Below, in pieces: positions 2,295-50,386 of a DNA stretch of 64,000 nucleotides (position 1 is the stretch's first letter; each line of letters begins with the position of its first letter). This DNA is from Promethearchaeota archaeon (GTDB taxonomy: Archaea; Asgardarchaeota; Lokiarchaeia; Sigyniarchaeales; SOKP01). Location: contig JAHPZJ010000028.1 in NCBI GenBank assembly GCA_019058245.1, forward strand, positions 32,001 through 96,000, written 5' to 3'. The notes under the pieces are model-generated. The model worked only from the letters and a program-made list of their open reading frames with translations, was not told where the DNA came from and ran no database searches. A program made the position numbers and the translations under genes.

Positions 2295-2544
2295 ATTTTA
2301 TCACCCAAATATGAACTCAGACTTTTTTGATTTTAATTTAATTGAATTTAATATATTTGATCATCTATTCATTTAATGAACTTATGACCTTTTTATAATT
2401 TCTCACTGAGGTGTTATAAGTAATTTCTTTTCTAATCCAAAATAAGTAACAATTATCTATTAATATTTTAAAGTATATAAACAGAATTTTGGATTTTTTT
2501 ATAATGTACTAATTAATATGATTTAATTAAGGACATATGGATTC

Positions 2545-2994
2545 TTAATGCACATATCTTTTTGAATAATCAATCACTTGACGTTTATAATCTTCATCTA
2601 TTAGGGGGGAAGAGACTAAAAAATCTGCTGTTGCTCTATTACAAGCAATGGGAATATTCCAAACAACTGCTATTCTAAGTAGTGCTTTCACATCGGGATC
2701 ATGAGGATGAGATTCTAATGGATCCCAAAAAAAGATAAGAAAATCTATTTCTCCCTCTGTAATTTTTGCTCCAATTTGTTGGTCACCGCCAAGTGGACCA
2801 CTCAGAAAAGTAGTAACCTTCAACCCAGTTTCCTTTTTGATTAACGATCCTGTATTTCCTGTTCCAAATAGATTATGTTTGCTTAAAGTTCCCCTGTTAA
2901 ATTTTACCCATTCTAATAGATCTTGTTTTCTTTCGTCATGGGCAATTAGAGCAATATTTTTTTTCTTAATCATTAAAATTTGATTGTTTAACAA
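2545..2994 (-). CDS. mgsA: Methylglyoxal synthase
   Basis: [34 protein letters not shown] motifs; true start probably the internal Met (MIKKK). Confidence 0.95.
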
Positions 2995-3219
2995 TTTACA
3001 TCTACTTTTTAATTATGGTAAATTATAAAACAATCATTCTATTTTATTTTTAACTAAATTAGGTTGTGATTATCTAATTAATTCTCAAATCTAACATAAT
3101 TTAGTTGTATTACTAATATACTACAACAATTATCTAAAAGTTGAAAGTTAAAAATATAAAGTCTATAATAGATCTAAAAATAAAAGCTTGTCAATAAAAA
3201 TCGGGGTATTTAATAAATA

Positions 3220-43200: not shown

Positions 43201-43506
43201 TTATCCACAACAACTATTGTTTTGAGGATTTTTAGCAACAGAGCGAGCATTCCATAAGCAACCACAACCTTTTTGTTCTTGTAAAAAAATTGCCATTGTA
43301 GGACAATTTCTTTTACAAGCAGAGCACTCCGTGCAAAGTTCTGGATTATTAATTTCAAATTTCCCATCTTTATTTGGAGTTGGGAGTCCAAAAGGACAGA
43401 TTTCTCCACATATACCACAACCTGTACATAAATCAGGGTTGATTGAGATCTTTGGGATATTTAATGAAATTTTAACTGATTTTGATTTTAATGTTAATTT
43501 GATCAC
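43201..43506 (-). CDS. hgcB: HgcB-like 2x[4Fe-4S] ferredoxin with C-terminal Cys tail
   Basis: CTGCGICGEICP, CTECSACKRNCP, then GCGC and terminal SCCG; immediately downstream of the hgcA-like gene. Confidence 0.8.
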   Translation of the reverse strand: MIKLTLKSKSVKISLNIPKISINPDLCTGCGICGEICPFGLPTPNKDGKFEINNPELCTECSACKRNCPTMAIFLQEQKGCGCLWNARSVAKNPQNNSCCG

Positions 43507-43558: not shown

Positions 43559-45247
43559 TTAAAATATTAGAGGGAAAATGATACTAATAGCTAGAGATAT
43601 TAAACTAATTATAAATAAAACCATATTGATTTTACTGAAAATTGGATATTCTTCTTGGATCTCCCGAGGGCTAGTTGCCATAGTATATCCACTGTACGAC
43701 ATTGTAGAGAAGAATGCTAACCAAAAGTAAAAGCAAGATTGCCATAATATTAAGAAGAATGAATTATGAATAAGCCAAGATATACTACTTAATAGAAAAA
43801 CATTTATAATACCATAAATCAAACCTTTAATAATAAATCTTCGAGTGAAATTGGTAATAGGGTATAAAAACATAATTGATGCATTAGTAATAATAACCCA
43901 AAGCCAAATTTCAGCAACAATCCACATTAACCTTATTTCTACAATATTTAATATGCTTAATCCTAATATAATTAAAATTAATGCAACACTTGGCCATAAG
44001 AAAATCTTTCGAAATAAAAATGTAGTATGCGTAATAGCTGCACGCAAACGATGAGAAGCTGTAAATCTTGCTAATCTCATTTTCTCTGGCTTTCGAGCAG
44101 GGCGTTCATTTAGAAATTTAGGAATATGTTTCGCCCATACAGGTCCAAATAAGATATTATATGGGAAATTTGACGCTTCACTTTTTATTAAGGGAGATGC
44201 AATTCCTCCAGCAGAAAGTTGAGGAAGTATTAATGTTTTCTTATTAGAAATATTAGTAATATCAGTTGCTTCTACTGCTTCAATCAATTGTTTATTTCCA
44301 AAATTATTTCCTCGAGCTGCACACCAAACATTTATCCCATTAGAATCAACACATAAAACCCAAGCGTTTATCCCTTTAAGAGCACGCATTAATTTAATAT
44401 ACGTATAACTATAATTAGCAGTTACTAAAATAGGTGAATCTCTGTCAGGAATCCCCGATTTATAAATACCTGGCTCTATTGGTACATGATCTACCTGTCC
44501 TGTAAAAATACAACGATAAATGTTCATTTGCGCCCGAAATCCTTTAAACTTTTTAAACTTAGGATGATAATAACCAGGTTCTTTTAAATTATTATTCTGA
44601 ATCTTTTTTAATTCAATAACTCGAATAGAACCATGATTCCATCTTTTTTCTGCCACTAATTTAAAACCAATAGGCTCTAAATAATTGAAAAACCATTTGA
44701 CTAAAAATGTATTAGGCAATCGGAGCCTACCTAATTTTTTTTTGTACTTCCAACGTTTAATGTTAAAAAAAATTCTCCAAAGCCCAGAGGGGACAAATTC
44801 AGCGGCAAGTATCATCCGACCATTCGGTTTTAAAGCCTTCCAAGCATTTCTTAGAAAAGTTTGTTGTTCAAATGGTCTAAGTTCTGAAAGCATAAATGTA
44901 CTTACAATCAAATCTTTAGAATTATCTTCAGCAGGTAAATCAGTAATTGATCCTATTTGGTATAAAAGTTTCGTTTTGGATTCAGAAGGAAAATTTTTCA
45001 TAGCCGTGTTAATCATTTGTAAGTTTTTATCAATAGCTAGAACTTCACTCCCCTTTAACGCCATTTTTTTAGCAAGAGCTCCTGTACCGCATCCTACTTC
45101 TAGGATAATTTGTGGTGCTTTAATTCGTTCTATTATCCAATTCTGAACTTCGATATTCGTACCTTTTGTAAGTTCAGTGAATTTTGATTCATAAGTCTCA
45201 GGCTCTAATTCCAATTTCCGCATGTAGACTACAGCTATTTTATTCAC
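43559..45247 (-). CDS. hgcA: Class I SAM methyltransferase fused to an HgcA-like corrinoid-binding domain and membrane anchor
   Basis: ILEVGCGTG, AID, DLIVSTFMLSE, LKPNGRMI; then IEPGIY..G.PD..SPILVTANY, GINVWCAARG, LILPQLSAGG, FGPVWA and about 5 C-terminal TM helices. The symbol denotes homology; Hg activity is unproven. Confidence 0.8.
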   Translation of the reverse strand: MNKIAVVYMRKLELEPETYESKFTELTKGTNIEVQNWIIERIKAPQIILEVGCGTGALAKKMALKGSEVLAIDKNLQMINTAMKNFPSESKTKLLYQIGSITDLPAEDNSKDLIVSTFMLSELRPFEQQTFLRNAWKALKPNGRMILAAEFVPSGLWRIFFNIKRWKYKKKLGRLRLPNTFLVKWFFNYLEPIGFKLVAEKRWNHGSIRVIELKKIQNNNLKEPGYYHPKFKKFKGFRAQMNIYRCIFTGQVDHVPIEPGIYKSGIPDRDSPILVTANYSYTYIKLMRALKGINAWVLCVDSNGINVWCAARGNNFGNKQLIEAVEATDITNISNKKTLILPQLSAGGIASPLIKSEASNFPYNILFGPVWAKHIPKFLNERPARKPEKMRLARFTASHRLRAAITHTTFLFRKIFLWPSVALILIILGLSILNIVEIRLMWIVAEIWLWVIITNASIMFLYPITNFTRRFIIKGLIYGIINVFLLSSISWLIHNSFFLILWQSCFYFWLAFFSTMSYSGYTMATSPREIQEEYPIFSKINMVLFIISLISLAISIIFPLIF

Positions 45248-45397
45248 ACCTATTTATCGTATTTTAGAAAATTCTTTTTAATTTTTATTCATAAAAAGTC
45301 ATATTAAATTTAATTTTTCAGTCGAATAAATCAAAAAAAAAATAAAAAACTTGAGATTAAATTTTTTAAATTTTGCTTTTGATAGAATTATATTAAT

Positions 45398-45481
45398 TTA
45401 ACAACACCCTTCTTTTGATTGGGATTCCTCTTCATCATTTTTAGGTTCTTCAGAACAACATTCTTTATCTTTATCTTCCAT
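45398..45481 (-). CDS. 27-aa acidic di-(Cys-Cys) peptide MEDKDKECCSEEPKNDEEESQSKEGCC
   Basis: Below the ORF-track cutoff; ATG...TAA, GAGGT SD about 12 nt upstream, own BRE/TATA and operator. Confidence 0.75.
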   Translation of the reverse strand: MEDKDKECCSEEPKNDEEESQSKEGCC

Positions 45482-45523
45482 AAGTAATTAAGACCTCGTT
45501 TATATTTAATTGTTAGATAATTG

Positions 45524-45555
45524 ATAGTTAGGAGCCTAACTATATAAATGTTTCG
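45524..45555 (-). promoter_or_regulatory. BRE-TATA promoter overlapped by a perfect palindromic operator (probable MarR site)
   Basis: ATAGTTAGG-ag-CCTAACTAT at 45524-45543; minus-strand CGAAACA-TTTATATA at 45541-45555; degenerate copy at 45563-45580. Confidence 0.75.
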
Positions 45556-45622
45556 TTTCATATAATTAGGAACTTAACAAAATAATTTAATTTAAAATTT
45601 TAAAGGAGCGTAAGTTAAAGCG

Positions 45623-46087
45623 TTAACATTTTAGTGAGTTTAATAATTTCTGAAGTAATTCTCCTAACTTTTTCACCTCTTCTTCATTGATTTCTGGACA
45701 ACACCCATTAACGATTGATTCTAAGGGAGGAGTTTCATTTTTTAAGTTTTTGCCCTTTTCTGTAAGTTTAACAAGGAGACTTCTTCTATCCGAAGGATGT
45801 AATTTGCGAGTAACTATCTTCTTTTTTTCCATTGTATCTACTACTCCTGTAATTGTAGATCTTGAACATCCACATTTTTCTGCTAATTCTTTAAATTGTT
45901 GACCATCGGATTCCCATAGCTGACTTAATATAAAATGCTGTGCTGGAGTTAGTTCTAATTCTTGAATATTATTACGCTTTAATTTTTCGTATTTCTTATT
46001 TATGGTATTAATTAAAGAAAATACATTGACAATATGTTTAGGTTTACATGAATTTTCACATAATTCATGGTTTTTTTTTTCACTCAT
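45623..46087 (-). CDS. Cys-rich MarR-family transcriptional regulator
   Basis: LTPAQ..IL..LW, SRSTITGVVDTME, DRRSLLVKLTEKG; Cys in CENSC, CGC, GCC and at the C-terminus. Confidence 0.9.
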   Translation of the reverse strand: MSEKKNHELCENSCKPKHIVNVFSLINTINKKYEKLKRNNIQELELTPAQHFILSQLWESDGQQFKELAEKCGCSRSTITGVVDTMEKKKIVTRKLHPSDRRSLLVKLTEKGKNLKNETPPLESIVNGCCPEINEEEVKKLGELLQKLLNSLKC

Positions 46088-48314: not shown

Positions 48315-48896
48315 TTATTTACTCAACTTTTCTAGCAAAAAAGCAAAATTCTTGCCTAAATTTTCAAATGTTTCAATACCCTCTTCATCATCCAACACTT
48401 CTCCCGCTTGTCTTCCAATTCCTACATTCCAATAACTCGAACCAACAACAAACATCTGGTTTATAAGAAAGAAATAGTTTATACTTGAGAAAACATGATT
48501 TGCTCCAGCCCTCCTAACTGCTACAACTGCTGCTCCTACTTTGTGTTTTAATTTTCTTCCAGCAGCATATCCGCAACGTTCTATTAACGCTTTTGTGGTT
48601 GTTGTTAAATTAGAATAATATGTGGGAGAACCAATAATTATTCCATCAGAATTTAACATCTTTTCAATATACTTATTCATATTATCTCCAGGTAATACAC
48701 ACTTTTGATCATCATTATCTCTACATTTCATGCATGCCGTGCATCCTTGCATTTTTTCCATCCCAATCCAATTATAATCACATTCTATCCCAGCTGCTTT
48801 TAATTCATCCATAACGACATTTAAGCAATGATATGTATTTCCTTCTTTTCTGGGACTTCCATTAAATAATACCACTTTCATTATTATAGACCTCAA
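48315..48896 (-). CDS. Iron-sulfur flavoprotein (Isf) / flavodoxin family
   Basis: NGSPRKEGNT, CTACMKC......C, GSPTYY, VRRAGA, GSSYWN. Confidence 0.9.
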   Translation of the reverse strand: MRSIIMKVVLFNGSPRKEGNTYHCLNVVMDELKAAGIECDYNWIGMEKMQGCTACMKCRDNDDQKCVLPGDNMNKYIEKMLNSDGIIIGSPTYYSNLTTTTKALIERCGYAAGRKLKHKVGAAVVAVRRAGANHVFSSINYFFLINQMFVVGSSYWNVGIGRQAGEVLDDEEGIETFENLGKNFAFLLEKLSK

Positions 48897-49027: not shown

Positions 49028-50386
49028 TTATTTCCAAACATTTACTGCTTCTTTTAGATGTTCAATGGCTTTTATTTCATTGGGTTTGATCTTTAAAAGT
49101 AAGTCAGTACCTTTTTTTCTTTTATCTTCTGGGAACTCACCTTCAAATGTAAATGGAAATATTTCAACAAATTTTGCAAGCAAATCTTTAGACTTAGAAA
49201 ATTCTTCAGAAGCCTTTATTAACGGTTTATATTGAGGTCTATCTATGTATCGTGTTGCGACTCTTTTTAGAAACTCTACGGTTGTGGATCTACCTTCTAA
49301 TGCACAATTTGCTACATAACTATTTCCAAAATAAATTAAATTTTCTCCCTTTATTCCTTTTTGTAGGACATTTGCCCATTCTACAAAAGCTTCTGGTCCT
49401 GCAACATAAGTATCTTCATGTGCGTAATTCTTTCCTTCTGCCATACGAATCGCACGTTCAATAGCTTCCTTGTCTCTAACTTTTGGATCAACATCTATTT
49501 GCTTATCAAAGGAGAAATAATGTAATAATCCTGGTGCTTTTATTTTGTCATATGGAATTGGTGTTTCTGGTAAGCCCTGATAGTGTCGAAATGTGCTAAC
49601 AAGATAGGACTCATCTTTATAACCATAAACAATCCCATATTCTGGAACTGGAATCCCCCAAAAAACTATTGGTTTTTGATTCTCATTAAAATCTTTTTTG
49701 AAGTGATCGAATAATTTCTTGGCTTGACCTCTTTTAGGTGTATCTATGTCAATTTCACTTTCATATTTGGTTTCCTCCTTATATCCCCATTTAATTTCAA
49801 TTCCAAGGGCTTGTGTACCCTTCAGGATTTCATCATATGCTTTATGAGCTGTTGGTCCAGATGCACAAGTGTCTTTCTTTGCCACATTGATAAAAAAGGA
49901 CCACCCACTATAACCCCCCACATCAATTATACTACATTCTTGTCCAAAAGATTTTAAAACACCAGAAACTGCACCTAAATATGATATCCAACACTTTTGA
50001 TATACGGGAATATTACTAGTTCTATTTTCACCCATTTCAGTTAACCTTCTTTTCTGGAATCCTTGTGAATAATATTGTTGGATTTTTTTTCTCTCAAATA
50101 ACTCTCGAACTTTTGCATTATCATAAAATTTAGTAATTGCTTTTAGTAATTCTTGTCCATCTTGGGTAATTCGATAAAATCCCCGTTCAAAACGCTCTAT
50201 TAATTTCACTTCAATTAATGAGGTCAAATTATTTGAAAGAGCTGTCTTTTGTAATTCAGTTTGGCGTTTTAATTTACTAAAATTCAAAATTTGTTCATTT
50301 AATAGAGATAATATTTGAATTCTTTTTGGATGTGCTACTGCTTTTAGAAATTCTGTCATTCCTTCAATATTATCCAATAATAACAC
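49028..50386 (-). CDS. ArsR-type wHTH regulator fused to a large C-terminal putative sensor domain
   Basis: AVAHPKRIQIL...LSNNLTSL...GFYRITQDG; about 330-aa C-terminal domain; likely start TTG (MDNIEG). Confidence 0.75.
   Translation of the reverse strand: MLLLDNIEGMTEFLKAVAHPKRIQILSLLNEQILNFSKLKRQTELQKTALSNNLTSLIEVKLIERFERGFYRITQDGQELLKAITKFYDNAKVRELFERKKIQQYYSQGFQKRRLTEMGENRTSNIPVYQKCWISYLGAVSGVLKSFGQECSIIDVGGYSGWSFFINVAKKDTCASGPTAHKAYDEILKGTQALGIEIKWGYKEETKYESEIDIDTPKRGQAKKLFDHFKKDFNENQKPIVFWGIPVPEYGIVYGYKDESYLVSTFRHYQGLPETPIPYDKIKAPGLLHYFSFDKQIDVDPKVRDKEAIERAIRMAEGKNYAHEDTYVAGPEAFVEWANVLQKGIKGENLIYFGNSYVANCALEGRSTTVEFLKRVATRYIDRPQYKPLIKASEEFSKSKDLLAKFVEIFPFTFEGEFPEDKRKKGTDLLLKIKPNEIKAIEHLKEAVNVWK

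Follow-up and report, generated by a model that had tools for sequence, protein, structure and literature searches.

SmtA, like MymT, is a bacterial metallothionein, small, cysteine-rich, and without aromatic residues; in the SmtA/SmtB type, its gene lies beside that of a cysteine-bearing, metal-sensing repressor, and the operator overlaps the promoter. ArsD, the arsenic metallochaperone of ArsA, folds into a protein of about 120 aa. It captures As(III) with a vicinal cysteine pair and a third thiol (Cys12, Cys13, and Cys18) and hands it on (PMC12415280). Vicinal pairs are also among the ligands of type 2 and type 3 ArsR regulators, as in Cys95/96/102 of AfArsR and Cys15/16/55 of CgArsR (PMC11868830). 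In the HgcA/HgcB pair, flexible terminal arms with a vicinal Cys-Cys (or Cys-Sec) accompany a corrinoid methyl-transfer enzyme: canonical HgcA carries CC or CU in an N-terminal extension, the PC[U/C]GP arm (bioRxiv 10.1101/2022.07.06.499078), and HgcB ends in a CC tail (PMC7305189). The proposed role of these arms is to collect Hg(II) or pass it on (PMC7305189; bioRxiv 10.1101/2022.07.06.499078), collection being assigned to the Cys94/95 tail in HgcB (PMC7305189). Furthermore, bona fide hgcAB have been linked to ArsR-like, arsenic-responsive control (PMC10349881).

The locus described here lies in a 64,000-nt stretch of a Promethearchaeota contig (the window; G+C about 28%), which also contains a gelsolin-domain gene. 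Its own assembly comprises 3.09 Mb and is 76% complete, and the genomes used for comparison are MAGs. Four genes form a co-oriented row on the minus strand: a MarR-family regulator, a 27-codon ORF, a 562-aa fusion, and an HgcB-like ferredoxin. The features of the row are as follows:

45623–46087, minus strand: cysteine-rich MarR-family regulator (Pfam MarR, E 7.9e-17)
45565–45578, no strand assigned: second, degenerate copy of the candidate operator, GTTAAGTTCCTAAT, on the upstream side of the BRE
45541–45555, minus strand: BRE-like CGAAAC (45555–45550) and TATA box TTTATATA (45548–45541), a candidate archaeal promoter with putative function
45527–45540, no strand assigned: candidate MarR operator, a perfect palindrome GTTAGGCTCCTAAC that directly adjoins the TATA box
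45493–45497, minus strand: SD-like GAGGT, 11 nt before the ATG
45398–45481, minus strand: gene of the 27-aa peptide, with Cys-Cys at residues 8–9 and 26–27
45333–45349, minus strand: oligo-T tract (T6-A-T10), 48 nt past the stop codon; candidate archaeal terminator
43559–45247, minus strand: 562-aa fusion of a SAM methyltransferase of the CpaM type with a corrinoid/membrane protein resembling HgcA (Pfam Methyltransf_25 and CdhD)
43201–43506, minus strand: HgcB-like 2x[4Fe-4S] ferredoxin ending in NNSCCG (NF040864, 53.5 bits, below the cut-off)

The short ORF runs from an ATG at 45481 to a TAA at 45400–45398 and encodes MEDKDKECCSEEPKNDEEESQSKEGCC, a product of 3.1 kDa with a pI of 4.1. An earlier, sequence-only reading had described it as an acidic 27-aa ORF with two Cys-Cys pairs and with SD, TATA/BRE, operator, and T-tract signals of its own; the ORF is present exactly as described, and all of these signals were found in its flanks. 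An overlapping ORF of 57 aa (45388–45561) was considered as an alternative and rejected, as stops interrupt that frame in 7 of 31 orthologs.

Compared with the described systems, the peptide would work most like a metallothionein–repressor pair or a minimal ArsD, and it is a member of neither. With the SmtA/SmtB type it shares small size, richness in cysteine, the lack of aromatic residues, a gene position beside a cysteine-bearing repressor, a (candidate) operator overlapping the promoter, and the predicted sequestration of the inducer. Low mass, high cysteine content, and missing aromatics also agree with the operational definition of metallothioneins; no match to a metallothionein family was found in Pfam, NCBIfam, or PDB for any of the 31 family members. 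The peptide differs from this type in having only 27 aa and four cysteines in two vicinal pairs instead of a cluster-forming CxC or CxxC array, in its regulator, which is of the MarR rather than the ArsR/SmtB type, and in its archaeal host. ArsD is alike in its vicinal pair, and the context of the peptide is arsenic-related. However, the peptide is a quarter of the size of ArsD, is predicted to be disordered, and shows no sequence match to it; ArsD proper (PF06953) is thioredoxin-like with Cys12-Cys13-Cys18, whereas the 27-aa peptide has the vicinal arrangement only and no Pfam match. No arsA gene was detected in the loci examined. Like the arms of HgcA and HgcB, the peptide carries flexible vicinal cysteines beside a corrinoid methyl-transfer enzyme, in its case with a pair near each end. 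Those arms are parts of enzymes, whereas the peptide has an ORF to itself, complete with SD-like motif, stop codon, and T-tract, lacks PCUGP, and is tied to MarR and not strictly to the enzyme; it is thus neither an HgcA extension nor an HgcB tail.

Two Cys-Cys pairs in a short ORF are not a strong signal as such. At least two pairs occur in 10 of the 11,137 ATG-initiated ORFs of 20–45 aa in this genome, and one of the ten is a chance ORF within the hgcA-like gene (43911–43997, minus strand, other frame; 28 aa, MAKCC...VDCC). As this chance product has Cys-Cys at both ends, the motif alone proves nothing. The composition by itself is not exceptional; it is conservation that lifts the peptide above chance.

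A profile search recovered 31 orthologs of 25–38 aa: 28 of 53 species genomes in the window's own Promethearchaeia genus have the gene, as do 3 of the 42 in one sister genus. The remainder of the 400 genomes of the phylum yielded no ortholog and only two marginal matches (E 0.016 and 0.033). The frame is open in all 31 orthologs, while each of the other five frames contains stops in 7 to 31 of them. ATG and stop codon are invariant, all indels are in frame (3 to 27 nt), and an SD-like motif (GAGGT, GGAGG, or AAGAGG) lies 6–11 nt ahead of the ATG. Pairwise variation at codon positions 1, 2, and 3 amounts to 0.24, 0.15, and 0.33, the third position being the most variable; mean pN/pS is 0.46, and pN is below pS in 95 of 105 ortholog pairs. 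Cysteine codons swap between TGT and TGC and are never replaced. Based on the codon-position pattern, pN < pS, the in-frame indels, the fixed start and stop, and the SD-like motif, the ORF is judged to be a genuine, conserved coding gene under purifying selection on its cysteine pairs and their spacing.

The same features stand out in the alignment of the products. The first pair begins at residue 8 in 27 of 31 orthologs, the spacer between the pairs has 16 residues in 21, and 30 have 0–2 residues past the last pair; the motif reads xCC[STA]E. Overall composition is 22% Glu, 16% Cys, 14% Lys, 11% Ser, and 11% Asp (Asp plus Glu 33%), with 1.6% hydrophobic residues, 0.1% Tyr, and neither Phe nor Trp. 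Four loci (L013, L015, L061, and L066) have gained a third pair by short internal insertions. Two copies look decayed, a second copy in G100 without the last pair and a copy in G003 without the C-terminal half. The ORF and both of its pairs are retained at orthologous loci; the loss that the sequence-only reading had named as a refuting outcome did not occur. No Pfam or NCBIfam family matched any of the 31 members at E ≤ 0.1, a PDB profile search gave no match, the ESM Atlas returned noise-level matches only (0.81), and Rfam had no match over 45150–45750. Among 1.84 billion protein representatives, a profile search identified six proteins of 25–36 aa, all belonging to this peptide family, unnamed and in singleton clusters. 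No match was found in the literature searched either; the family is conserved yet has no name in the databases searched.

The flanking signals are conserved as well. Nearly all orthologs have a TTTAWATA box 60 to 80 nt upstream of the ATG. The palindrome GTTAGGCTCCTAAC occurs only once in the 3.09-Mb assembly and is placed after the TATA box, ahead of the predicted start site; a palindrome of the GTTAGGATCCTAAC type is kept in the ortholog alignment, and the twin arrangement of candidate operators is conserved. Downstream, a run of at least seven T within 80 nt past the stop codon was found in 23 of 31 orthologs, usually 50–60 nt beyond the stop, compared to 7% of random 80-nt windows of this genome. 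A scan for bacterial promoters and terminators revealed no stem-loop terminator, a type of scan that does not apply to an archaeon. The T-tract reported between the peptide gene and the next gene is both present and conserved. As for the production in excess over the enzyme that had been derived from it, conservation of the tract would agree with a transcript that terminates on its own and is possibly made in surplus.

The MarR-family regulator has a conserved CxC at the start of its HTH, an invariant Cys-Cys pair near the C-terminus, and an N-terminal cysteine cluster. Orthologs with at least 64% identity are present in 29 genomes of the family, and the peptide gene follows directly downstream in all 29, with a divergent 27-aa version in G022. 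In contrast, the gene after the peptide varies. It can be the CpaM::HgcA-like fusion, as in the window; an FMN-reductase-type flavoprotein with a CxxCxxCx5C motif and then the fusion; this flavoprotein alone (G012, G007, G029, and G094); an hgcB-like gene (G140, where the adjacent MarR is decaying); or only an unrelated AP-endonuclease-2 gene (G017, G035, G011, and G022). In G097 the order is flavoprotein, peptide, fusion, and in G015 and G032 the peptide and flavoprotein genes have neither a nearby MarR nor the operator. The constant partner of the peptide gene is therefore the cysteine-rich MarR and not the HgcA-like enzyme, and the description of the peptide as heading the hgcAB-like genes had to be abandoned. 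This pattern also differs from that of a RiPP precursor: MarR alone is constant, and four genomes have no adjacent enzyme except the unrelated AP endonuclease. Two further genes of the window lie 2–3 kb upstream of MarR on the minus strand. One encodes a 193-aa FMN-reductase-type flavoprotein with a cysteine motif (48315–48896; 23% identity to the peptide-linked flavoprotein of relatives), the other a 452-aa protein (49028–50386) whose N-terminus resembles an ArsR-type HTH by eye.

The fusion scores 131 bits against CpaM (NF043040), 169 against HgcA (NF040863), and 177 against HgcAB_like, all below the cut-offs, and its cap-helix motif reads NVWCAARG. It apparently starts at a GTG within a conserved GGTGTG (45234–45250, minus strand), where coding-type conservation begins; no separate SD-like motif is found at the usual spacing, and a leaderless or unusual start may apply. 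All orthologs of the HgcB-like ferredoxin share a GCGC motif and the SCCG tail, and Cys-Cys within the last six residues occurs in none of the 2,415 ORFs of at least 120 aa in this genome. The echo of the peptide's terminal pair in its neighbors is accordingly borne out, by this SCCG end and by the invariant pair near the MarR C-terminus. The fusion is present in 30 of the 31 peptide-bearing genomes, the exception being a 62% complete genome. However, about half of the genomes of the genus contain the fusion operon without the peptide, from which it follows that the enzyme does not need it, and peptide and fusion are unlinked in G012, G017, G011, G029, and G007. We also considered a complementarity in which long HgcB-like tails would occur only where the peptide is absent, which proved not to be clean: extended tails with an extra CxC are found in acr3-linked operons, several such genomes carry MarR and peptide elsewhere, and short tails also occur in some genomes without the peptide. 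Elsewhere in the window's own genome (G000, contig C11:2983–4748), there is a second, unfused CpaM (221 aa) with an HgcAB-like fusion (261 aa from the first Met; open frame of about 370 aa), and this pair has no Cys-Cys tail and no Cys-Cys peptide nearby.

In the window, the peptide gene has no acr3, arsM, or mer neighbor; the arsenic-related context comes from relatives. A sister clade of MarR (45–59% identity) with CCC at the HTH start and the same invariant pair near the C-terminus adjoins genuine arsM (333 and 335 bits compared to an NF008823 cut-off of 263), and is located directly upstream of it in at least nine genomes (L079–L088; e.g., L079:971–1450 and 1713–2681). This suggests that the sister clade is an arsenic sensor of the MarR rather than the ArsR type in Promethearchaeia. 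In one genome (G061, L087), sister MarR (983–1462), arsM (1584–2384), a 234-aa gene (2451–3155), and the fusion form a single cluster. Furthermore, an ACR3-type arsenite pump gene lies directly upstream of the orthologous CpaM::HgcA-like/HgcB-like operon at seven loci (L025, L027, L031, L034, L036, L037, and L041), ending just before oriented position 3000, in species without MarR and peptide at that place; its score of 281 bits is essentially at the TIGR00832 cut-off of 282.8. In some of these loci and their relatives (L025–L032), the HgcB-like ferredoxin has a tail longer by about 20 aa, with an additional CxC ahead of the terminal pair. By gene neighborhood, the context of relatives points to arsenic-type metal(loid)s. 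Two apparently related, cysteine-containing ORFs of 51–54 aa, sharing C..C(W/F)NPEN, were observed between sister MarR and methyltransferase genes at two loci (L082:1608–1772, plus strand; L083:3546–3701, minus strand).

The ArsM N-termini of these archaea read SCCG-x(5-36)-SCCG. They resemble the peptide in having two Cys-Cys pairs and a hydrophilic spacer, in their presumed control by the sister MarR clade, and in the existence of free-standing copies. One such copy (G141, L098:1498–1647, minus strand; 45 aa) follows a sister MarR with no arsM after it, and another (G142, L084:2654–2788, plus strand) follows arsM with a TATA-like box and a T-tract of its own; both have 44–45 aa and two pairs 18 residues apart. 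They differ from the peptide in being Ser/Pro/Thr-rich instead of acidic and in a conserved helix in front, and homology between the two is unsupported (hhalign probability 2.9%). As these copies of an ArsM segment exist beside the 27-aa family, regulated stand-alone CC...CC peptides arose at least two times in this archaeal family.

We put at about an even chance that the peptide is a MarR-controlled thiolate peptide for soft metal(loid)s, acting as buffer or chaperone. Its gene would be transcribed from its own BRE/TATA promoter, with the adjacent MarR repressing via the twin operators. Derepression would follow once the cysteines of MarR capture a thiophilic metal(loid), As(III) being the likeliest candidate and Hg(II) another possibility. 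The short transcript would mostly stop at the oligo-T tract, which would yield the peptide in excess over the downstream enzymes. The product would be small, disordered, and highly acidic, fixed only in its two cysteine pairs (residues 8–9 and C-terminus) and the spacer of about 16 residues, which is nearly devoid of hydrophobic ones, and its four thiolates may enclose the metal(loid), in an S3 site for As(III) or an S2–S4 site for Hg(II). It would thereby buffer the metal(loid), and sequestration of the inducer would feed back on the sensor; where the genes are present, the metal(loid) might be handed to the HgcB-like Cys-Cys tail and the CpaM::HgcA-like methyl-transfer enzyme. We infer translation, metal binding, ligand identity, repression by MarR, and hand-off from sequence and gene context. 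A mini-metallothionein or metallochaperone had already been proposed in the sequence-only reading; this remains the best explanation and gains the arsM/acr3 context, but no sequence link to metal-binding families was found. Several observations weigh against it. A classical metallothionein cluster requires more than four cysteines, the solved proteins nearest to MarR are the thiol-oxidation sensors OhrR, MgrA, and SarZ, and the frequent neighbors of the flavoprotein and endonuclease IV-like types would also suit an oxidative-stress module. In addition, the window has no acr3, arsM, or mer beside the peptide, and many fusion operons do without it. We tentatively suggest, as a rather improbable case, a free-standing thiolate arm: the peptide would capture substrate in trans for a SAM/corrinoid metal(loid) methyl-transfer machine (CpaM::HgcA-like plus HgcB-like), replacing the CC/CU arm that canonical HgcA, or the cysteine-rich N-terminus that ArsM, has in cis, and would at the same time set the induction threshold of MarR by competing for the inducer.

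The sensors nearest to MarR lead to the first alternative, a role in thiol or oxidative stress, which we regard as unlikely. MarR would be an OhrR-like oxidant sensor, and the peptide a sacrificial or recyclable dithiol/disulfide buffer which, together with the flavoprotein, protects enzymes whose Fe-S or Co(I) centers are oxygen-sensitive, the HgcA-like/HgcB-like pair among them. OhrR, MgrA, and SarZ are the best named or solved relatives of MarR, the CxxCxxCx5C flavoprotein lies between peptide and fusion or alone after the peptide in many loci, an endonuclease IV-like gene follows in six loci, and an aldehyde:ferredoxin oxidoreductase-like gene (named by motifs) precedes MarR in three. However, disulfides between vicinal cysteines are strained, and the usual redox motif is CxxC. 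The match of MarR to OhrR is at the family level only (56 bits compared to a cut-off of 200), and arsM and acr3 accompany the sister MarR clade and the orthologous enzyme operon, respectively.

Strict linkage to MarR, the sole invariant genomic partner in 29 of 29 cases, could also mean that the acidic peptide binds the cysteine-bearing arms or the DNA-binding face of MarR, with or without a metal(loid) or disulfide as a bridge, and serves as a co-sensor, anti-repressor, or feedback element. MarR and peptide stand alone as a pair in G017, G035, G011, and G022, and a similar acidic CC or CxxxC arm is found at the MarR N-terminus. We nevertheless consider such a partnership quite improbable: a repressor beside its sole target, as for SmtB/SmtA, explains the linkage more simply, no precedent was found in the literature searched, and in G015, G032, and G097 the peptide gene is kept although no MarR is nearby.

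The thiols of the peptide, or a metal(loid) bound to them, might instead be the methyl acceptor of the CpaM::HgcA-like/HgcB-like system, with the peptide as a substrate or carrier equivalent in trans to the HgcA CC/CU extension or the cysteine-rich ArsM N-terminus. Beyond the co-occurrence with the fusion in 30 of 31 genomes, the fusion has its CpaM domain at the position of the HgcA arm with no Cys-Cys pair visible in the translation, and the ArsM N-termini here carry CC-(5 to 36)-CC. This proposal is very doubtful in view of the many genomes that have the fusion operon and no peptide, the five genomes in which the two are unlinked, and the non-significant profile comparison with the ArsM N-termini.

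That the ORF is a leader peptide or upstream ORF, whose translation, for instance by stalling at cysteine codons, tunes termination at the oligo-T tract and hence read-through, had been offered in the sequence-only reading as the other option. It is the first ORF behind a regulated promoter, contains four cysteine codons, and is separated from the next gene by the conserved T-tract. The varying or unrelated downstream gene and the fusion operons without the peptide argue against a leader of the hgcA-like gene and for a product with its own function. About 50 nt separate the tract from the stop codon, and no stem-loop resembling a terminator was found. Selection acts on sequence, spacer length, and the position of the C-terminal pair, a constraint not expected of a mere stalling leader. 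The peptide gene thus fails as an attenuating leader in each of these respects, and read-through tuning is highly unlikely. Least probable by far is an untranslated element, a small RNA or a promoter-proximal DNA element, for which the ORF's being too short for most gene callers could be cited, against the coding-type variation described above and the lack of an Rfam match.

The native function of HgcAB-type enzymes and the source of their substrate are open questions on which the peptide bears; the published HgcAB model has Hg(II) coming "from an unknown source" (PMC7305189). A small, synthesizable peptide beside an HgcA-like system of Asgard archaea makes metal(loid) capture and hand-off directly testable. 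The unit of MarR, operator, and peptide is, moreover, a compact candidate biosensor/chelator pair. The locus also illustrates that metal(loid) response loci can include conserved genes shorter than the 30 codons at which gene calling usually begins. If the thiolate-peptide reading is true, the family would add a missing class of prokaryotic metal-buffering peptides, which is archaeal, has four cysteines, and is under MarR control; if the peptide is indeed a free-standing arm, archaea would have a hitherto undescribed kind of metallochaperone, minimal and encoded by a gene of its own.
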